Shown here: one piece after another, positions 8,049 to 34,956 of the stretch
How the letters are laid out: each line of letters begins with the position of its first letter
How positions within the stretch are numbered: position 1 is the stretch's first letter
Source of the DNA: a virus
Reading direction: 5' to 3' (one strand)
Length of the DNA: 64,000 nucleotides
UHGV virus genome: UHGV-0066004
The notes under the pieces: generated by a model
Seen by the model: only the letters and a program-made list of their open reading frames with translations
What the model was told of the DNA's origin: nothing
The model's database searches: none
Program-made: the position numbers and the translations under genes

Positions 8049-16067
<8,019 letters not shown>

Positions 16068-27775: not shown

Positions 27776-27851
27776 TGGAGAATCCGAAGGGACTCGAACC
27801 CTTATAAACCTGTTTTGCAGACAGGCACATAGCCATTTCTGTCACGGATTC
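27776..27851 (-). tRNA. tRNA-Cys (GCA)
   Basis: manual cloverleaf; acceptor GAATCCG/CGGATTC, anticodon loop CTGCAAA, CCA encoded. Confidence 0.75.
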
Positions 27852-27855
27852 AAAT

Positions 27856-27948
27856 TGGAGGAAGATACCAGACTTGAACTGGTACACCGATTTCTCAGCT
27901 ACTGGCAGTTTAGCAAACTGCTCCCTTACCTTTTAGGGTTAATCTTCC
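27856..27948 (-). tRNA. tRNA-Ser (GCT), type II
   Basis: 93 nt with long variable arm; anticodon loop TTGCTAA. Confidence 0.7.
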
Positions 27949-27950
27949 AT

Positions 27951-28685
27951 TTATTTCTGTAATGCGTTCTTCATTTCTGGTGTTGCAATAGTGTCAATTA
28001 CACCAGTTTTACAAGCATCATCAAACCAGTCTGGTAAGATACCTGCTAAGAACCCATTGATATTCGTTTTAAGGTACTCTGCAATAAGGGCAGCTTCTTC
28101 TTCAATCATCTGCACAACTTCATCTGCATAAGCTGTAATCTTTGAGATACCTTCATTAATCTTACTGACAGCTTGGTTAGCTAAATCAGAAACAGTATCA
28201 AGACCCTTGTCAATAGCGTCTTGTAAGTCACTTAATACATCGTTAACACTCTCTAGTGTACTGTTAATCGTATCAATAGCTTTTTGACCATATTCTGTAG
28301 CAACACCCATAATACCACTGAACGGTGTACAACCAACTTGTTCTCCTGCTGCACCCATAACATTGGAATATCCCTTTGCTACCTGCATACGTGATGAAAA
28401 CTCATCAATAGATTTTTGACCGTAGTCTGTCAGGGTCTTAGTAGTTGCTGTAGTGCTTGTAAGGCTTGTTGTAAAGCTGTTTAGAAGGACTGTTGTAAGT
28501 CCAGCAGCAACAAGCTTATCCTTTACTGTAGGGTCTGATACAGAGCTAATAGAGCTTACAAGTGATGTAGAGGCAGCTACGGTTCCACCGAGAACTGCTG
28601 CACCAGTAATAAGGGGGTTAGAAAACCCTTTACCGGTTTTTAAGAGATTGAAAATCTCCTTACCTTGTTCTGTCATCTCTTTCAT
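27951..28685 (-). CDS. hypothetical protein inside tRNA array
   Basis: track ORF 27951..28748 trimmed to internal Met (MKEMTEQ) because its 5' end overlaps a tRNA. Confidence 0.5.
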   Translation of the reverse strand: MKEMTEQGKEIFNLLKTGKGFSNPLITGAAVLGGTVAASTSLVSSISSVSDPTVKDKLVAAGLTTVLLNSFTTSLTSTTATTKTLTDYGQKSIDEFSSRMQVAKGYSNVMGAAGEQVGCTPFSGIMGVATEYGQKAIDTINSTLESVNDVLSDLQDAIDKGLDTVSDLANQAVSKINEGISKITAYADEVVQMIEEEAALIAEYLKTNINGFLAGILPDWFDDACKTGVIDTIATPEMKNALQK

Positions 28686-28703
28686 TAAGCACCTTTGAAA
28701 TTG

Positions 28704-28778
28704 GTAGTCCAGTGGGATTTGAACCCTCTTCTCATGTTTTTCAGACACGCGCTTTAACCATATAAGCTACTTGGACTA
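28704..28778 (-). tRNA. tRNA-Phe (GAA)
   Basis: acceptor TAGTCCA/TGGACTA perfect; anticodon loop CTGAAAA. Confidence 0.7.
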
Positions 28779-28783
28779 TAAAT

Positions 28784-28859
28784 TGGGGTGACCTACGGGA
28801 TTTGAACCCGTATAGACCATGTTCACAGCATGGGTCATTACCGTTTATGATAAGGCCAC
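28784..28859 (-). tRNA. tRNA-His (GTG)
   Basis: anticodon stem CCATG/CATGG, loop CTGTGAA. Confidence 0.7.
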
Positions 28860-28890
28860 ATTTAAGGACTCTCGTAAGAATCCTTAGAAG

Positions 28891-28966
28891 TGGCAGCGGC
28901 ATAAGGATTTGAACCTTAATAAGACAGCTTCAGAGACTGCTGCATTGCCAGTTATGCTATGCCGCT
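28891..28966 (-). tRNA. tRNA-Gln (CTG), tentative
   Basis: acceptor AGCGGCA/TGCCGCT; anticodon loop CTCTGAA with G-U closed stem. Confidence 0.6.
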
Positions 28967-28971
28967 AAATT

Positions 28972-29050
28972 TGGTACTCCATATCGGATTCGAACCGATA
29001 CATAACACAGATTTTAAGTCTGGCCTCTCTGCCAATTGGAGTAATGGAGC
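28972..29050 (-). tRNA. tRNA with Leu anticodon TAA, atypical short variable arm
   Basis: 79 nt; T-arm ATCGG-TTCGAAT-CCGAT; loop CTTAAAA; A73. Confidence 0.55.
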
Positions 29051-29052
29051 AT

Positions 29053-29128
29053 TGGCGGGGGATGTTGGAATTGAACCAACTTCTTCGATTTCAAAGACCG
29101 AGGTTTTAACCTTGTAAACTAATCCCCT
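29053..29128 (-). tRNA. tRNA-Gln (TTG)
   Basis: anticodon stem TCGGT/ATCGA, loop CTTTGAA. Confidence 0.65.
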
Positions 29129-29136
29129 TTAAATCT

Positions 29137-29694
29137 TTACTTTCTCAGTGGATGAATAAAGAATGCCAACATAACTCTTTCCCTTGAGAATGCTCTTTCT
29201 TCTGGGACAACACTTTTTAGTTTCCATCCAATATAAATTCTCCAGTAAAATTGTTTACCAAAGATTTTAATTGATGGGATAAAAGCGAATAATCCCCAAG
29301 CATTACTGTTCCACATTAGGAGATAACCTGTCTGATTATCTTCAGGGTCAGAACTTACGTTGATATTACCTTTCCACTTAGTAACATCTTTTACATCTCT
29401 TCCTAATACATGGTAAGAGAAGTTATAAGCTTTGTTTCTCCAGAGCCATCCGACTCTTTGCATGTAGACACCTAGTTTACCAATCCATCTGATATTAGCC
29501 CATCTTTTAACGTGACCTTCATCACCATCAATTGGGTTGTCATATGTCTCCATCCATCTGAACCCGAAAGGTAAGTGTCCTTTCTTCTCACTGTAGAATG
29601 GAACTACGAAAGGTGCTAAGATAACTGCTAGTATTGCTGCAAGTGGTTCTAGCAAAGCTAAGAAAATCCATGAAGCATATTTTAAGTATCTCAT
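29137..29694 (-). CDS. hypothetical membrane protein
   Basis: 185 aa; hydrophobic N-terminus, Trp-rich. Confidence 0.5.
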   Translation of the reverse strand: MRYLKYASWIFLALLEPLAAILAVILAPFVVPFYSEKKGHLPFGFRWMETYDNPIDGDEGHVKRWANIRWIGKLGVYMQRVGWLWRNKAYNFSYHVLGRDVKDVTKWKGNINVSSDPEDNQTGYLLMWNSNAWGLFAFIPSIKIFGKQFYWRIYIGWKLKSVVPEERAFSRERVMLAFFIHPLRK

Positions 29695-29933
29695 TGTCTA
29701 ACCCTCGTAAGGAGGTAAGCATTATTACTTGTTTCTGAGCTTTCTGGTAACATTGTCTCAAAATTGACACTTTTAAGTTGTCTTCCACCAAAGCAATGAC
29801 CAATAAATCTTTCTACTTTTATTGGGTCGCATTCCCATCCGACTTTTAAGAAAATGTGGGTATCTATAGTGGGAACCCTTACAAACTCAATACTATTGGG
29901 ATTTTCATGTTCAACGACGATTAATGTTTGCAT
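29691..29933 (-). CDS. hypothetical protein
   Basis: 80 aa, start-coupled to downstream ORF. Confidence 0.45.
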   Translation of the reverse strand: MQTLIVVEHENPNSIEFVRVPTIDTHIFLKVGWECDPIKVERFIGHCFGGRQLKSVNFETMLPESSETSNNAYLLTRVRQ

Positions 29934-29941
29934 AAATTCCT

Positions 29942-30017
29942 CTTGCTTATCTGGCGCAGGATAAGGGATTCGAACCCCTATTAACAGTTTCGTAGACTGT
30001 TGCTCTATCCATTTGAA
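29942..30017 (-). tRNA. tRNA-Arg (ACG)
   Basis: acceptor GCAGGAT/ATCCTGC; D-arm GTTC-AAATGGATA-GAGC; loop CTACGAA. Confidence 0.75.
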
Positions 30018-30022
30018 CTAAT

Positions 30023-30100
30023 CCTGCAAAATTGGTGTTCCAAGACGGATTCGAACCGTCACTAATACAAGGTTTGAGCTTGCATCCTCTGCCAATTGGG
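30023..30100 (-). tRNA. tRNA with Leu anticodon CAA, atypical short variable arm
   Basis: 78 nt; anticodon stem GCAAG/CTTGT, loop CTCAAAC; A73. Confidence 0.55.
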
Positions 30101-30101
30101 A

Positions 30102-30176
30102 TACTGGAACATGGTACTCACTAAAGGACTTGAACCTTTTTCTTCATCTTGTAAGGGTGGTGTTTTACCATATAAA
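30102..30176 (-). tRNA. tRNA-like, anticodon tentatively TAC (Val), weak anticodon stem
   Basis: good acceptor, D-arm and T-arm; anticodon stem only 3 of 5 pairs. Confidence 0.45.
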
Positions 30177-30276
30177 CTAAGCGAGTGTGAAAGAGGTCTG
30201 AAGTTGTGCCGCTAACTCAACTCCGTGGAATTTGTTACGGTCTTCAGTTGACACCAGCGGTCTTTCACTTGACCTC
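30176..30276 (-). ncRNA. structured RNA candidate (non-tRNA) within tRNA array
   Basis: terminal complementarity AGAGGTC...GACCTCT and internal CUGAAGACCG motifs related to the Y-RNA-like family. Confidence 0.3.
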
Positions 30277-30348
30277 TGAATTGGTGCTGCTCACAGGACT
30301 CGAACCCGCATTTCCATCCTTACAAGGGATGTGTAATAGCCAATTATA
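30272..30348 (-). tRNA. tRNA-Thr (TGT)
   Basis: anticodon stem CATCC/GGATG, loop CTTGTAA. Confidence 0.7.
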
Positions 30349-30355
30349 CGAAAGC

Positions 30356-30430
30356 AGCATTAATTTGGAGCATCCAGAGGGAATCGAACCCTCAACCTCA
30401 GTTTGGAAGACTGTAATTTTCCCGTTTAAA
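30356..30430 (-). tRNA. tRNA-Gly (TCC)
   Basis: acceptor GCATCCA/TGGATGC; loop CTTCCAA. Confidence 0.7.
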
Positions 30431-30436
30431 CTATGG

Positions 30437-30512
30437 ATGCACTAATTGGTGGAGAAGCAGGGAATTGAACCCTGTACTTAAGTTTGCAAAACTTATGTTT
30501 TAACCATGTAAA
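30437..30512 (-). tRNA. tRNA-Ala (TGC)
   Basis: anticodon stem TAAGT/ACTTA, loop TTTGCAA; T-arm CAGGG-TTCAATT-CCCTG. Confidence 0.7.
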
Positions 30513-30518
30513 CTACAT

Positions 30519-30594
30519 CCCCAATGTATGGTACAGGTGGAGGGAATTGAACCCATCGTCTTACTGATTAAGAGTCAGCCGCATAACCATTTTG
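30519..30594 (-). tRNA. tRNA-Lys (CTT), tentative
   Basis: anticodon stem GCTGA/TCAGT, loop CTCTTAA; weak T-stem. Confidence 0.55.
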
Positions 30595-30601
30595 CTACAC
30601 C

Positions 30602-30679
30602 TGCATTAATTTGGTAGGAGACAAGGGATTCGAACCCTCAAACACCAACTTCTAAGGATGGTAGGTTTACCAATTACCG
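30602..30679 (-). tRNA. tRNA with Leu anticodon TAG, atypical short variable arm
   Basis: 78 nt; T-arm GAGGG-TTCGAAT-CCCTT; loop CTTAGAA; A73. Confidence 0.5.
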
Positions 30680-30756
30680 TCAATCTCCCATTAAATCTTT
30701 TTAGAGAACTTCTAAGAACCTAAGCAACAAGGTTCCACAACAAGCTGTAATAACCT

Positions 30757-30783
30757 TAGAAGCCCTCTAAAAAGACCTAAAAA
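30757..30783 (-). terminator. stem-loop terminator candidate inside tRNA array
   Basis: aaagacc-loop-ggtcttt palindrome with U-run on minus-strand reading. Confidence 0.4.
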
Positions 30784-30937
30784 GGTCTTTGCATAGTCTT
30801 GTTTAATCCGGTGACTAGAACCTTTGGAGAGCTTGATATTATCTCTTCTCCGTGACACATACTAGGTGCTTTACTGTGCTTGTACGACAATACACGAGGG
30901 ATACCAAAGCAACATCCGAATGAAGCTTGGCTTTAAA

Positions 30938-31025
30938 CCTTATTAGGCGGTAAGTAAAGGAGTCGAACCCTCACCGTATCTCTACAGTGGCAACTGTTTT
31001 CAAGACAGTTTGGCTACCATTAGCC
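30938..31025 (-). tRNA. tRNA-Ser (TGA), type II
   Basis: 88 nt, long variable arm; anticodon stem ACTGT/ACAGT, loop CTTGAAA. Confidence 0.7.
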
Positions 31026-31038
31026 GCTACCTACCCCT

Positions 31039-31121
31039 AATAAGACTTTGGCATGGGACGGAGGAGTTGAACCCCTTTGAAACGGTTTTGGAGGCCGTTG
31101 CTCATGCCTTAGAGTCTTAAC
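31039..31121 (-). tRNA. tRNA-like, anticodon tentatively CCA (Trp), extended D region
   Basis: perfect acceptor ATGGGAC/GTCCCAT; loop CTCCAAA; about 7 extra nt in D region. Confidence 0.45.
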
Positions 31122-31263
31122 ATCGTCCCATATTATAATTCGAAGCTTACCGTATTATCTCAACACTGTAAAGCCCCTTCTCAGATTATTTACATGTTCT
31201 GGAAAACATGAGATACAGACCACCTCCCTACAGGAAGACCCGCTTAGGTCGTCTAAGTAATCT

Positions 31264-31340
31264 GCTAACTAATTGGCACACCCTACAGGATTCGAACCTG
31301 TAACTAACGATTTAGAAGACCGTTGCTCTATCCAATTGAA
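31264..31340 (-). tRNA. tRNA-Arg (TCT)
   Basis: D-arm GTTC-AATTGGATA-GAGC; loop CTTCTAA. Confidence 0.75.
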
Positions 31341-31587
31341 CTAAGGGTGCATTAATCTTTAAAGACTCTCTTAGAAAGCCCTTAAAGATGCCCACCTTAT
31401 TAATCATACCGTGGGCTAGTACGCCAAATTCTTTGATGAGGGATTGGAAGACCTCACTGGTGTTTAGCCTATCAAGCTACTGCCAGAAAAACATTGTCGT
31501 TTGCATTTATTTTAAATTTGCAAAATAGACGCTACGCAACGAAAACTAAGGTTACTATAAAGTAGTCACATCTCAATGTCAACAACT

Positions 31588-31663
31588 TTATTGAAATTGG
31601 TACTGGTAGGTGGAATCGAACCACCGATGTTCCCTTATCAGGGGAGTGTTATAACCTTCTTAA
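31588..31663 (-). tRNA. tRNA-Ile (GAT)
   Basis: T-arm GGTGG-TTCGATT-CCACC; loop CTGATAA. Confidence 0.7.
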
Positions 31664-31664
31664 C

Positions 31665-31741
31665 TATACCAGCTTGGAGGTTCAGATGGGAATCGAACCC
31701 ACATTCATAGGGCTTATGAGACCCTTGCATTACCTTATCTG
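31665..31741 (-). tRNA. tRNA-Met (CAT)
   Basis: perfect acceptor GGTTCAG/CTGAACC; loop CTCATAA. Confidence 0.7.
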
Positions 31742-31745
31742 CGAC

Positions 31746-31821
31746 TGAACCATATTGGTAGAAGTGGAGGGATTCGAACCCATCGCCTGTCAGATTAAAA
31801 GTCTGCTGCATCACCATTCTG
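31746..31821 (-). tRNA. tRNA-Lys (TTT)
   Basis: T-arm GGGTTCGAATCCC; loop CTTTTAA. Confidence 0.7.
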
Positions 31822-31825
31822 CTAC

Positions 31826-31969
31826 ACTTCCATTAAATTATCTTTGTAGATAAGCTACCCAGACTTGCTTAAGGTCTGTAGCGATGTGCCTTGTTGGGTT
31901 TAAATCTAGAATTTACCCTTTCACCCTTTGTGGTCGCATACTCACAGGTAAGCTTAATAACTTATCTAC
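31826..31969 (-). ncRNA. structured RNA candidate closed by a 19-bp perfect inverted repeat
   Basis: aattatctttgtagataag at 31826-31844 is the exact reverse complement of 31951-31969; internal CCAGAC/GTCTGG hairpin; no convincing ORF. Confidence 0.4.
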
Positions 31970-31970
31970 A

Positions 31971-32102
31971 AAGATAATTACCAGACCGTTGTTTATCATC
32001 TTAAGTGCTACCATTACACCAACTCGACATCTGCCGAGTGAAGGAATCGAACCTTCGCCTTTTCTTTACCGGAGAAATAGATTGTTTAAGTTTTGCTGTA
32101 AA
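31971..32102 (-). ncRNA. Y RNA-like (YrlA-type) candidate: circularly permuted tRNA-like module closed by a bulged terminal helix
   Basis: minus strand reads 5' CAGAAGACCG ... T-arm GAAGG-TTCGATT-CCTTC, acceptor 3' strand ACTCGGC, AGAT loop, acceptor 5' strand GTCGAGT, TG, D-arm GTGT-AATGGTA-GCAC ... AACGGTCTGG 3'; ends pair with AAG bulge; no anticodon arm. Confidence 0.55.
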
Positions 32103-32115
32103 CGGTCTTCTGTAA

Positions 32116-32188
32116 ATTTGTTGAGCCAGACCAAGTTTAAATTTTCAAAATTAAATTGGCTTGAAATTTCATACGTTCTTGCTGTATT
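32116..32188 (-). ncRNA. Y RNA-like helix element (no tRNA-like module)
   Basis: same closing helix (CAGAAGACCAA ... TTGGTCTGG) around an AT-rich hairpin. Confidence 0.4.
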
Positions 32189-32249
32189 TGGTCTTCTGCT
32201 CCTTTAAAGGATACTCGTAAGGACCCTTTAAGGGAGGGGCTAAATAGCC

Positions 32250-32327
32250 CTCTCAAAATTGGCGGTTACGAAGGGATTTGAACCCTCATCATCTCCCGTG
32301 ACAGGGGAGTATTTTAACCAAATTAAA
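32250..32327 (-). tRNA. tRNA-Asp (GTC)
   Basis: perfect anticodon stem CTCCC/GGGAG, loop CTGTCAC. Confidence 0.75.
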
Positions 32328-32332
32328 CTACA

Positions 32333-32420
32333 TAACCTTTATTGGTGTGCCGTGTAGGAGTCGAACCTACCGAGTCTCAATGACAAGGGATTTACAGTCC
32401 CCACCGCTACCATCTACGGG
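32333..32420 (-). tRNA. tRNA-Tyr (GTA), type II
   Basis: 88 nt with long variable arm; loop CTGTAAA. Confidence 0.7.
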
Positions 32421-32429
32421 ATAACGACA

Positions 32430-32506
32430 CATTTAAATTTGGCGGTTAGTCAGGGATTCGAACCCTGTGCCATTCGCTTAACAGGCGACCGCACATACCT
32501 TATATG
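32430..32506 (-). tRNA. tRNA-Asn (GTT)
   Basis: T-arm CAGGG-TTCGAAT-CCCTG; loop CTGTTAA. Confidence 0.65.
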
Positions 32507-32517
32507 CTTCCTAACCT

Positions 32518-32577
32518 TAATACATTGCCAGACCGTGTTTTTTCTTTTATCCGCAAAAAGTATTTTGTTGCTGAATA
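32518..32577 (-). ncRNA. Y RNA-like helix element
   Basis: closing helix GCAGAAGACCGT ... ACGGTCTGGC with 3-nt bulge. Confidence 0.4.
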
Positions 32578-32583
32578 CGGTCT

Positions 32584-32660
32584 TCTGCAAAATTGGAGGC
32601 GGGTGCAGGAGTCGAACCTGCCGATACCATGCTAATGAGACATGTGAGACGCCCTTTCTC
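32584..32660 (-). tRNA. tRNA (CAT); Met/Ile2 type, 1-72 mismatch
   Basis: loop CTCATTA; acceptor TGCGGGT/ACCCGCC with T1-C72 mismatch. Confidence 0.55.
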
Positions 32661-32671
32661 TATACCCGCAA

Positions 32672-32743
32672 TTCTCAATGACCAGACCAAATATCTTCTT
32701 TGTCCGATTTCGTGTCAGATGAGTAGATTAAGTTTGCTGTAAT
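32672..32743 (-). ncRNA. Y RNA-like helix element
   Basis: closing helix CAGAAGACCAATT ... ATTTGGTCTGG. Confidence 0.4.
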
Positions 32744-32750
32744 TGGTCTT

Positions 32751-32828
32751 CTGTCAAAACTGGCGTTCCAGAAGGGATTTGAACCCTCAGATATCCACTT
32801 TGAAAGAGTGGTGACTTTACCATTTTGT
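32751..32828 (-). tRNA. tRNA-Glu (TTC)
   Basis: perfect acceptor GTTCCAG/CTGGAAC; anticodon stem CCACT/AGTGG, loop CTTTCAA. Confidence 0.75.
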
Positions 32829-32835
32829 CTACTGG

Positions 32836-32912
32836 AACATTAATTTGGTCTCTGTTGGAGGACTTGAACCTCCGGCCTTACCGCCCCAAACGGAACGCTC
32901 TACCAAGCTGAG
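32836..32912 (-). tRNA. tRNA-Pro (TGG)
   Basis: D-arm GCTC-AGCTTGGTA-GAGC; T-arm GGAGG-TTCAAGT-CCTCC; loop TTTGGGG. Confidence 0.7.
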
Positions 32913-33087
32913 CTAAACAGAGATAAACTTTTCAAACTCTATGTAACCACTTTAACATTATTTTTTAGTGGTTGTCAAGAACTTTTTTAAAATATTTTTC
33001 AGTATCTTAGAAAAGCTCTCGTTTCGTTTCTATGTAGAACATATTAAAGGGTATCAAACACATTGTCAATACCCTTTTTAAAACTTT

Positions 33088-34503
33088 TTACCAGATATAA
33101 CGGTCAATCATTACTGCTTTGAGCATTACACTGATTGGGTCAAACTTCTCACCACCAAGCAGAGCTTTTAAAGTAGCTGGAGAAAAACCAGATACCATTG
33201 CTACACCGTTATCCTTAACAGACACTTCGCAAGTACCATTACGGTTTGCTAAGTACCAGAATACCAGTTGAGGCATTTCGTATCCAGCTTTTTTGTACTT
33301 ACTCTGAATTGCTTCAAAGTTTGTACGACCGTTAGCTCCATCAACCTGATTGAACTCCATATCGGAGAAGATGATAAGCTTACTTGGCATATCTTTCTGA
33401 GTCAAGTTGTTTCTTTTACCTGTTTCAAGAATACGGTCAAAAGCTGCTTGTAAGTTAGTTGAGCCATATTCAACGTGTCGCATCACCTGACGATGACGGT
33501 TTCGTAAATCACCACTCAGTTCGATGAAGTGAGGGTTTGTTGAATAAACCATCAACTCATTCTTAAAGCAACCTGTATTACGTTCTGCTACATACAATGC
33601 AAGTGAAACACCAATATCAAGAGCAGTAATTGAACCAAAATTCACCCAAGACATTGAGCTTGAAACATCAGACATACACAAGATGTTTTCACCCTCTGCC
33701 ATCCAGTTTGGTAGTGCTTTCCACTGCTCATTAGCAACATCTGCATTACCATACTTAACAGATTTAATTACATCGTATGGGTAAACAGCACCAGCATTAA
33801 TCTTAGTCTCACCCTTTGATAAGGACTCGATGTAAGCTTTGTAGCGTTCTCCATCTTTGCGGTTAAACAGTTTTTGGTAACGTGCAGCAGCAAGTGAAGG
33901 AATCTTACTGTAGTCAATCTTACCAAACTCATTAGCAGAGATTTTTTGCTCAACTGTATCAGATAGTGCAGACAACAGTGTGCGGTACTCTTTCTCACTC
34001 AAGTTGGCAAACTTGCAGAAACGTTTTACAAACTGCTTATGACGTGGTTTGACTCGTGGTAACCACTTAGCCGCCAAACCTGCTGTTGCAGGGTCTAGTA
34101 ATGCTGCTTCTAGATGTTTGAAGGCATCTGTCTCGAAACAAGTACCTACGAAGATTTTGAAGTCATCAAAACGACCAAGTTCTGCAATCTTATCCATAAT
34201 GCGAAGAACCTGCGTAGGCTCTAAAACTTTGTCTTCAATCGCTTGAAGTAAAACAGTTCTGAAGGCTTTACGCTCACCCATACCTTCTCGTACATCTCGC
34301 ATATGAAGCAAAATACGAACTGCAACATCAACATCCTCACGCAAAGCTTTGTAGAACAGGTCTGGTAAGATTTCTACGTTGCTACGGCTTGAACCAGCAG
34401 CTTTGTAAAAGTCTACAAGAGCAGACATTGATGAAGTATGGTTTACAGCACCATTTTCAGTTCGACCTGCATGAAGGTGCGCATGTTTAAATAATTCGCT
34501 CAT
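33088..34503 (-). CDS. vWA-domain protein, candidate Ro60 (TROVE)-like RNA-binding protein
   Basis: 471 aa; C-terminal vWA with complete MIDAS set (DVSSS, GST, FSD); N-terminal ~270 aa helical domain of TROVE-like size; adjacent to tRNA/Y-RNA-like array. Confidence 0.6.
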   Translation of the reverse strand: MSELFKHAHLHAGRTENGAVNHTSSMSALVDFYKAAGSSRSNVEILPDLFYKALREDVDVAVRILLHMRDVREGMGERKAFRTVLLQAIEDKVLEPTQVLRIMDKIAELGRFDDFKIFVGTCFETDAFKHLEAALLDPATAGLAAKWLPRVKPRHKQFVKRFCKFANLSEKEYRTLLSALSDTVEQKISANEFGKIDYSKIPSLAAARYQKLFNRKDGERYKAYIESLSKGETKINAGAVYPYDVIKSVKYGNADVANEQWKALPNWMAEGENILCMSDVSSSMSWVNFGSITALDIGVSLALYVAERNTGCFKNELMVYSTNPHFIELSGDLRNRHRQVMRHVEYGSTNLQAAFDRILETGKRNNLTQKDMPSKLIIFSDMEFNQVDGANGRTNFEAIQSKYKKAGYEMPQLVFWYLANRNGTCEVSVKDNGVAMVSGFSPATLKALLGGEKFDPISVMLKAVMIDRYIW

Positions 34504-34584: not shown

Positions 34585-34956
34585 TTATTTTTTGAGAGTC
34601 GCTACAGCAGAGAACGTTGGTTTGTTATCTGTCTGAGACTGACCACCATTATCAGGGGTCTTCTTAGTGTCTGCTGCAATCGCTTTCATCTCACCTGCTG
34701 AGTGAGTCATGATGGTTTTACCAGCCTCCATCATCGACTTCAGGTTTACATCGTCAGTCGTCAAACCGAACTCTGCAAGCTTAGCAGCATCCCTTGTAAC
34801 AACCGCCTCAAACAACTTTGCAGCAAACTCAGCAGAATTATCAATGGTCAGTTGAGCTTTTACAAGTGAGCTTTTGTTACGAGAGCCTTTTGGTCTTCCA
34901 GATGGGTTTCCAGACTGGCCTTTTTTAAACTGGCCTTTGTTTGTTCTGTTTTTCAT
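34585..34956 (-). CDS. hypothetical basic protein with N-terminal GNPSGRPKG motif
   Basis: 123 aa; Lys/Arg-rich N-terminus. Confidence 0.5.
   Translation of the reverse strand: MKNRTNKGQFKKGQSGNPSGRPKGSRNKSSLVKAQLTIDNSAEFAAKLFEAVVTRDAAKLAEFGLTTDDVNLKSMMEAGKTIMTHSAGEMKAIAADTKKTPDNGGQSQTDNKPTFSAVATLKK

Follow-up and report, generated by a model that had tools for sequence, protein, structure and literature searches.

Among bacterial Y RNAs, the YrlA class has been defined by a 5' GNCGAAN0-1G motif, by nearly invariant T and D stem-loops with a variable acceptor-like stem-loop between them, and by a less-conserved V stem-loop upstream of T, its members lying within 4 kb of a Ro60 gene and on the same strand (PMC4201824). 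The element described here lies on the minus strand at positions 31981-32112 of the window, the 64,000-nucleotide stretch of UHGV virus genome UHGV-0066004 that was analysed, which belongs to a Felix O1-type myovirus (Ounavirinae). It is probably a YrlA-class Y RNA, that is, a tRNA-mimicking scaffold RNA within a Ro60/Y RNA-type particle that would include the protein encoded nearby. A search of the literature found no publication identifying this RNA or its siblings. What is new is the known YrlA architecture with a different terminal motif, a proposed partner that is not recognised as Ro60 by sequence, a setting within a tRNA array, and multiple siblings that consist of the closing frame only.

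Other described systems resemble this locus to varying degrees. In D. radiodurans the Y RNA Yrn1, acting with Rsr and PNPase (RYPER), is a tRNA-like RNA that tethers Ro60 to an effector enzyme, and the mechanistic model considered below is borrowed from it, although the T and D elements of Yrn1 are differently oriented and both strands of the metazoan-type Ro-binding helix are kept (PMC4201824). Thermus phage phiLo carries its own Ro60 with adjacent phage Y-like RNAs, Yrl1 and Yrl2, for which an anti-defence role through PNPase capture has been proposed (PMC12135203; PDB 9KOP, 9L5Y), and its Ro60 is among the best structural matches of the protein encoded in the window. Unlike the element, however, the phiLo RNAs are located upstream of a bona fide Ro60 and were selected for a CGAA motif and for a stem-bulge-stem shape, and the term 'tRNA-like' is not used in the text of that paper. 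In phage Bas63, gp130 (g130) is Ro60-like and counters the Ppl defence according to a PhageMaP preprint, in which no RNA was identified and some annotated tRNA genes were only suggested as Y RNAs (10.1101/2024.10.10.617714). The candidates presented here are not annotated tRNAs, but lie in 'empty' spacers that in Bas63 hold the antisense genes bas63_0137 and bas63_0138.

The tRNA cluster of the window (27776-32922) comprises 26 tRNA genes, all on the minus strand and together representing 19 amino acids, tRNA-Trp not among them, and the element occupies the gap between tRNA-Asp and tRNA-Lys. An earlier reading of the letters alone, hereafter the original prediction, had placed the end of the element at 32102, which severs the 5' strand quoted in that prediction itself; the true extent and the parts, in 5' to 3' order, are as follows.

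31981-32112, minus strand: module D, the YrlA-like RNA in full, with the frame at both ends and the V hairpin, the T arm, the closed acceptor hairpin and the D arm between them, from sequence, minimum free energy (MFE) folding, covariation and a covariance model.
32101-32112, minus strand: 5' part of the frame, unpaired CAGA (32109-32112) and helix strand AGACCGUU (32101-32108), from covariation; the motif occurs four times in the window.
32093-32100, minus strand: single-stranded motif UACAGCAA, directly 3' of the frame helix and a candidate protein-contact site, from conservation.
32061-32077, minus strand: V (anticodon-arm-like) hairpin UUUCU-CCGGUAA-AGAAA, with the 4-nt linker AGGC (32057-32060) after it, from MFE, covariation and a partial Rfam tRNA match.
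32040-32056, minus strand: T arm GAAGG-UUCGAUU-CCUUC, from sequence, MFE and covariation.
32022-32039, minus strand: closed acceptor-like hairpin ACUCGGC-AGAU-GUCGAGU, 7 bp with one G-U (3' strand 32033-32039, loop 32029-32032, 5' strand 32022-32028), from covariation.
32005-32021, minus strand: U8-G9 (32020-32021) and D arm GUGU-AAUGGUA-GCAC (32005-32019), the stem invariant.
31981-31990, minus strand: 3' part of the frame, helix strand AACGGUCU (31983-31990) and unpaired GG (31981-31982), from sequence and covariation.

The T arm, both acceptor strands, the AGAU loop, U8-G9 and the D arm are thus found on the minus strand as originally predicted, whereas the ends of the element were described less accurately. 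The closing helix between them is real, but just 8 bp of the quoted strands CAGAAGACCGUU and AACGGUCUGG pair, CAGA and GG being unpaired yet conserved. Nor does the element literally lack an anticodon arm, as had been claimed, a hairpin with a 5-bp stem and a 7-nt loop (32061-32077) having been missed 4 nt before the T arm. Because this V hairpin is present, the break in the tRNA-like scaffold falls between the D arm and the V hairpin and not, as had been supposed, within the anticodon loop.

The original prediction had proposed folding and covariation among homologs as checks on the structure, and both bear it out, albeit with different weight. MFE folding of the single sequence recovers all five helices, including the T-arm, acceptor and D-arm arrangement and the closing helix, but the energy is unexceptional (z = -1.38; 15 of 200 shuffles fold equally well), and therefore thermodynamics by itself proves nothing. 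The comparative evidence settles the matter. An alignment of 23 distinct variants from three Ounavirinae genera and from uncultured phages, designated A3, has 93.8% of its cells paired, as compared with 42-53% when the pairing partners are slid by 1-3 columns, and changes on both sides are seen at 22 of the 29 pairs. The covariation score is 0.681, against 0.10-0.17 for the slid controls, and no shuffle of 500 scored as high. Covarying pairs are found throughout the closing helix (8/8) and the acceptor hairpin (7/7) as well as in the V hairpin (4/5) and the T arm (3/5), while the D-arm stem is invariant, as are, across the 23 variants, the T-loop bases that had been specified in the search pattern. 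This covariation rules out chance and the decay of a tandem tRNA duplicate as sources of the structure.

The element is widespread among close relatives. A segment of 428 nt (31832-32259) matches 252 phage records, mostly at 95-99% identity, from phages of Escherichia, Salmonella, Shigella and Citrobacter. In a comparison across the Ounavirinae, which took in Suspvirus and Mooglevirus relatives and 29 distinct variants, the T and D arms are invariant and the acceptor hairpin exists in three fully compensated versions (ACUCGGC/GUCGAGU, ACACGUU/GGCGUGU and ACCCUUC/GAAGGGU), its 7+7-nt geometry constant and its loop variable (AGAU, AC or GCCAAACA). The V hairpin is conserved neither in the sequence nor in the length of its loop, and it is not a working anticodon arm, since in many Felixounaviruses the loop is 6 nt long, and in Moogleviruses of the Mordin type the hairpin has been replaced. 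In the Mordin-type Mooglevirus loci (L003, L004, L007, L011 and L016) the acceptor loop reads G-CCA-AACA, an encoded discriminator and CCA followed by a 4-nt spacer before G+1, which resembles a tRNA 3' end and then an RNase P site. Because the loop reads in this way, it hints that the acceptor hairpin may be opened after transcription. The UUCGA T loop, the GG of the D loop and the 7-bp acceptor would be compatible with tRNA-type modification (pseudouridine 55 by TruB, dihydrouridine by DusA) or with cutting by RNase P and the adding of CCA.

The claim that this is a YrlA-type design is supported by the architecture, by a neighbouring protein with a Ro60 fold, by a covariance-model match to canonical YrlAs and by a common D-arm 15-mer. 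As in the YrlAs of S. Typhimurium, M. smegmatis and mycobacteriophages (PMC4201824), a terminal stem is followed by the V hairpin, T arm, closed acceptor stem-loop and D arm, hardly any variation is seen in the T and D arms while the acceptor stem-loop varies in sequence, the gene lies on the same strand as and less than 4 kb from that of a Ro60-type protein, and there are smaller siblings with a common terminal motif, YrlB in the one case and the modules A-C described below in the other. The element has a T arm with the tRNA T-loop consensus, a D arm with G18 G19, a variable paired acceptor, a V stem-loop and paired ends; its acceptor has 7 bp, as does that of the M. smegmatis YrlA, which is cleaved by RNase P. 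A covariance model built from A3, designated R1, recognises the window element (31976-32114) at 113.9 bits and scores TROVE-adjacent canonical YrlAs at 55-71 bits. Four elements in IMG/VR (L035, L036, L097 and L124) lie beside Pfam-TROVE proteins, are canonical YrlAs and have the same D arm, GUGUAAUGG(U/C)AGCAC; the sole difference between these and the window element within the 15-mer is the D-loop position that the search pattern left free. Rfam, searched with all families including Y_RNA and tRNA, at the gathering threshold and at E<=10, gave no Y RNA or YrlA match, its sole match being a partial tRNA (22 bits against a 29-bit threshold) over the V hairpin, aligned as an anticodon arm, and the T arm. 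Canonical TROVE-adjacent YrlA loci have no Y-RNA-type match in Rfam either, and so Rfam is powerless to decide on YrlA. The element differs from YrlA in having a 7-8-bp frame helix and U(U/A)CAGCAA in place of GNCGAAN0-1G and an extended lower stem, in its proposed partner, a DUF2828/DUF7788 protein that is Ro60-like by fold only, in lying within a tRNA array that also has three or four siblings made up of the frame only, and in phage hosts that include E. coli, which is not known to have Rsr. The design is thus YrlA-like, and strict membership of the YrlA family is not established.

Beyond the named phages, a strict T...D pattern run against IMG/VR returned Ounavirinae alone, in the three acceptor versions, while a relaxed T-loop...D-arm pattern, its matches filtered for complementary acceptor strands and for freedom from overlapping tRNA calls, brought up this architecture in uncultured phages that are unrelated and have large tRNA arrays. 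When an uncultured-phage version was compared with GenBank phages by blastn, a single partial match (a Synechococcus phage) and no tie to named phages resulted. A scan of bacterial genomes had little power: among the 120 matches listed, 112 were ordinary adjacent tRNAs and six were permuted-like, two of these near TROVE. The uncultured phages also harbour a non-permuted version (L137 5711-5840; L103 8573-8709; L065 at about 700-850; the first matches in L048 and L099), in which the acceptor 5' strand comes first and is followed by the D arm, a linker, the frame in the form of a closed hairpin (AUCCU-GUCA-AGGAU), UCAGCAA, an anticodon-like hairpin, the T arm, the acceptor 3' strand and G-CCA. 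The L103 example (8580-8703) folds as a cloverleaf with an extra frame hairpin. Both circular permutations of one scaffold therefore exist. An uncultured-phage tRNA array that has a YrlA-like module also contains, about 1.1 kb from that module, a GOLLD RNA (L033 3326-3789; RF02032, 215.7 bits) in which a tRNA-Asn is embedded.

The frame consists of the closing helix and its flanks, CAGA-AGACCnn-UACAGCAA ... nnGGUCU-GG, and it is present in four copies in the window, designated A-D, all on the minus strand and all within tRNA spacers. Module D is the only one of the four that bears a tRNA-like body; the others are listed here.

32682-32753, minus strand: module A, in the tRNA-Glu/tRNA-Met spacer, a frame enclosing a hairpin with a 5-bp stem and a 7-nt loop; R1 28.9 bits.
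32528-32587, minus strand: module B, in the tRNA-Met/tRNA-Asn spacer, a frame enclosing a hairpin with a 5-bp stem and a 7-nt loop; R1 26.9 bits as a deletion variant.
32126-32198, minus strand: module C, the frame CAGAAGACCAAA-UACAGCAA...UUGGUCUGG around an AU-rich hairpin alone, a YrlB-like sibling.

The frame helix covaries between these paralogs (CAA/UUG against CGU/ACG), and the UACAGCAA motif is present in all four window modules and in the frames of distant phages, five of its columns (C17, G19, C20, A21 and A22) being invariant in the 23 variants. In uncultured phages the homologous frame reads UAGGAUnnn-U(U/A)CAGCAA ... nnnAUCCUG-UUAU and encloses diverse payloads. Some of these modules (L245 10782-10885; L247 10606-10704) have the V hairpin and T arm without the acceptor hairpin or the D arm, and therefore the payload of the frame is modular: none, V, V+T, or V+T with the acceptor stem and D arm. 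Identification of the frame as a hairpin ribozyme was considered and dropped; the likeness, to the substrate and loop A, is partial, there is no counterpart of loop B, and no Rfam ribozyme family matches.

The proposed protein partner of the element is encoded on the same strand, immediately ahead of the tRNA array.

33088-34503, minus strand: gene for the Ro60-like protein, 471 aa, DUF2828 and DUF7788, with a MIDAS (metal-ion-dependent adhesion site) DxSxS at residues 279-283; proposed partner and ortholog of Bas63 gp130, from Pfam, PHROG, an AlphaFold2 (AF2) model, Foldseek and identity.

This open reading frame (ORF) ends 976 nt upstream of the element and 165 nt before the first tRNA. Its product falls into PHROG 850, 'RNA-binding protein', and is 98% identical to bas63_0130, the product of the Bas63 gene; DUF2828 homologs number more than 2,500. 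The AF2 model, built on a 48-sequence alignment, has a predicted local distance difference test score (pLDDT) of 88.6 and a predicted template modelling score (pTM) of 0.88, and in a Foldseek search of the PDB its top 11 matches are all Ro60 (Xenopus, human, D. radiodurans Rsr and Thermus phage phiLo), in full-length alignments with E values of 5e-8 to 2e-6 and template modelling (TM) scores of 0.47-0.63. As modelled, the protein has a Ro60 fold. At the level of sequence, phmmer found no relative in the PDB, and NCBIfam gave no match. Directly before the Ro60-like gene lies one for a 123-aa DUF5681 protein (34585-34956, minus strand), and the same pair is found in Yersinia phage P778 (L245) and in L246, which suggests that the two genes form a conserved unit ahead of the tRNA array.

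Association of the frames with DUF2828 genes is recurrent. In at least 13 divergent phages (L040, L048, L052, L057, L059, L065, L069, L079, L092, L133, L246, L247 and L248) frame modules lie immediately upstream or downstream of DUF2828 homologs of 32-63% identity and on the same strand, and in at least 13 phages two to five frames in a run directly adjoin the gene; in L057 the start codon is about 20 nt past the end of a tRNA-like module. A simple scan detected 86 frames, as compared with about 14 in base-composition shuffles, and tblastn showed that 11 uncultured-phage loci have DUF2828 homologs (32-40% identity) no more than a few kb away from the RNA pattern. Seven contigs were picked through the DUF2828 protein, independently of the RNA, and four of them have an R1 match at E<=1.5e-5 on the strand of the gene: L247, with two (65.8 and 59.4 bits), L248 (64.3 bits), Vibrio phage phi-pp2 (42 bits) and Yersinia phage P778, where the form is T-arm-only (39.5 bits). 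A fifth, L246, has a weak frame-only match (26.7 bits, E 0.0025).

The most probable course of events is that the module RNAs are transcribed from the minus strand with the phage tRNA array and are freed, presumably, by the nucleases that trim the adjacent tRNAs. The T arm, the closed 7-bp acceptor hairpin and the D arm would then fold into a tRNA-like body, and the ends would pair into the short helix that is followed by UACAGCAA, forming the frame at which the Ro60-like protein (33088-34503) is proposed, from genomic linkage, to dock. Modules A-C would present the same frame but have no tRNA-like body, and so stand to module D as YrlB stands to YrlA. On the model of the bacterial Ro60/Y RNA/PNPase machine, the tRNA-like body might recruit a host factor that acts in tRNA binding or RNA decay, or keep such a factor occupied, or it might gate access of the protein to other RNAs.

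Several observations weigh against a YrlA-class RNA partnered by this protein. The GNCGAAN0-1G motif is absent near the 5' end, where the sequence is CAGAAGACCGUUUACAGCAAAA, and the only CGA is that of the T loop. A Pfam search of the ORF found no TROVE domain (PF05731), and hhalign against TROVE proteins aligned the vWA part only, at 18% probability; with so weak a profile link, the Ro60 kinship of the DUF2828 protein rests on its fold. The frame scan and R1 found no frame near the DUF2828 gene in L249 and L250, and L246, an Ounavirinae-like relative, has frames without a tRNA-like body, which is therefore dispensable in some lineages. Finally, T7 plated on a ppl host is rescued by gp130 alone, whether this is supplied from a plasmid or inserted in T7 itself (10.1101/2024.10.10.617714). 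The anti-Ppl activity therefore does not need the module RNAs, which for this reason may regulate the Ro60-like protein or serve a second function.

The modules might instead be processing or punctuation elements of the tRNA array, that is, cleavage or entry sites for RNase P, RNase E or RNase III that separate the tRNAs or stabilise their precursor, with no link to Ro60. All of the modules lie in tRNA spacers, a few nt from tRNA ends and with AU-rich flanks, the 7-bp acceptor hairpin beside the T arm is like a minimal RNase P substrate, and the Mordin-type phages encode G-CCA in the acceptor loop. This account is nevertheless unlikely: most tRNAs, here and in other arrays, are spaced by 5-10 nt without any such element, the frames of many phages directly adjoin the DUF2828 gene and do not lie between tRNAs, and a mere cleavage site needs no invariant D arm or T loop.

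Phage tRNA arrays are thought to offset host defences that target tRNAs, and given this presumed role the tRNA-like body of the element, together with the anticodon-arm-like hairpins of its sibling modules, might be a free-standing decoy that absorbs a tRNA-targeting defence nuclease or a tRNA-modifying enzyme of the host with no need of the Ro60-like protein. The anticodon-arm-like hairpins, with their 5-bp stems and 7-nt loops, would fit such a decoy. Their loops in the window modules (CCGGUAA, CACGAAA and UGCGGAU) lack U33, however, and are free to vary in sequence and even in length, conservation being concentrated in the frame, T arm and D arm and not in the loop. As a decoy of this kind would also not account for the tight linkage with DUF2828, the explanation is unlikely.

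A genuine circularly permuted tRNA-Thr (GGU) gene, the halves of which are joined at the frame by cutting and ligation, the acceptor loop being opened by RNase P and 3' trimming to yield a decoding tRNA, is very improbable. Permuted tRNA genes of the red alga Cyanidioschyzon merolae do mature to decoding tRNAs, by way of a bulge-helix-bulge, a splicing endonuclease and a circular intermediate, and the element is like these in that the 3' part of the tRNA comes before the 5' part and that a short linker connects the acceptor ends. Its geometry is exactly that of a tRNA (5-bp stem with 7-nt loop, 4-nt variable loop, T arm, and 7+7-nt acceptor with U8), tRNAscan-SE calls a 129-nt 'tRNA-Thr-GGT' in MZ726792, and CCA is encoded both at the 3' end of the non-permuted counterparts in uncultured phages and in the Mordin-type loop. 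Unlike the C. merolae genes, however, the element has a bacterial host and no conserved anticodon loop: C33 replaces U33, the triplet varies among relatives, and the loop can be 6 nt long or the entire hairpin replaced while T arm, D arm and frame stay intact. There is no bulge-helix-bulge, the junction being a plain 7-8-bp helix without paired 3-nt bulges, and we know of no bacterial machinery for joining such tRNA halves. The sibling modules and L246, moreover, have the frame without tRNA parts, and the phage already has a tRNA-Thr(UGU).

A functionless, decaying tandem tRNA duplication, in which the 3' part of a first copy runs into the 5' part of a second, is in practice refuted by the covariation, for although T-arm...D-arm matches stem most often from tandem tRNAs (112 of the 120 bacterial matches listed and most viral matches), every variable helix here is kept by compensatory changes across genera and unrelated phages, the element is conserved in about 250 phage records, and its D arm is unique in the window, matching none of the 26 tRNAs and therefore copied from none of them.

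The reading of the element as a YrlA-class RNA of a Ro60-like particle can be extended, speculatively and with little likelihood of being right in full, to a large, hitherto unrecognised family of modular phage RNAs. The frame, made up of a short helix and U(U/A)CAGCAA, would be the mark of RNA subunits of a DUF2828 Ro60-like particle that serves phage tRNA arrays, and it could be a site at which RNA ends are cut and rejoined or exchanged; this is suggested because the scaffold occurs in both circular permutations, one with the acceptor closed and the frame open, the other with the acceptor open, bearing a 3' CCA, and the frame closed. Opening of the acceptor by RNase P could then leave a two-piece, CCA-bearing and possibly chargeable tRNA-like molecule on the Ro60-like ring. 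If true, this would be a device for the surveillance or repair of tRNAs or for anti-defence, and it would differ from the Ro60/Y RNA/PNPase machine that is known.

The surroundings of module D hold further structured segments. Directly after it on the minus strand is a third RNA (31832-31980), in which about 100 nt are enclosed by a stem of about 19 bp, formed by UAAUUAUCUUUGUAGAUAAG (31961-31980) with CUUAUCUACAAAGAUAAUU (31836-31854); this stem covaries in Susp- and Moogleviruses (GCAGUGAC/GUUACUGC), where much of the interior is replaced. Within it lies a mini-frame hairpin, CUAC-AGAC-CUUAAGCAA-GUCU-GG-GUAG (31855-31881), that also covaries (AAACC/GGUUU). Between tRNA-Asp and module C (32199-32250, minus strand) there are two conserved hairpins, GGGCU-AUUU-AGCCC and CUCCCUUAAAGGGU...AUCCUUUAAAGGAG, the latter with a compensatory change from G-C to A-U in relatives and with a 3' strand that ends in AAGGAG and is followed by no conserved start codon. 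Promoter-like sites were found on the minus strand at 33041-33069 and 32949-32978. Small ORFs at the element were rejected as an explanation, an 11-codon AUG frame not being conserved and the coding sequences (CDS) annotated in relatives being antisense to the RNA. Public records mis-annotate the region 31832-32259, either as tRNA-Thr, as in the tRNAscan-SE call in MZ726792 and under the REP5-7 match, or as antisense hypothetical CDS, as in Alf5 (ORF044c), Bas63 (bas63_0137/0138) and others.

The RNA partner of Bas63 gp130 had previously only been guessed at, and there are now exact coordinates for four candidate Y-like RNAs, with structural features that can be tested: the frame helix, the UACAGCAA motif and the tRNA-like body. 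The annotation of a region now labelled 'tRNA-Thr' or as antisense hypothetical proteins would be corrected accordingly. In a wider context, the pairing of Ro60 with Y RNA would be extended to DUF2828, a large protein family that sequence searches leave unlabelled as Ro60, and would reach common phages of E. coli, Salmonella, Shigella and Citrobacter along with many uncultured phages that carry tRNA arrays. As Felix O1-type phages lend themselves to genetic work, and so do their hosts, the role of the tRNA-like domain of bacterial Y RNAs becomes directly testable.

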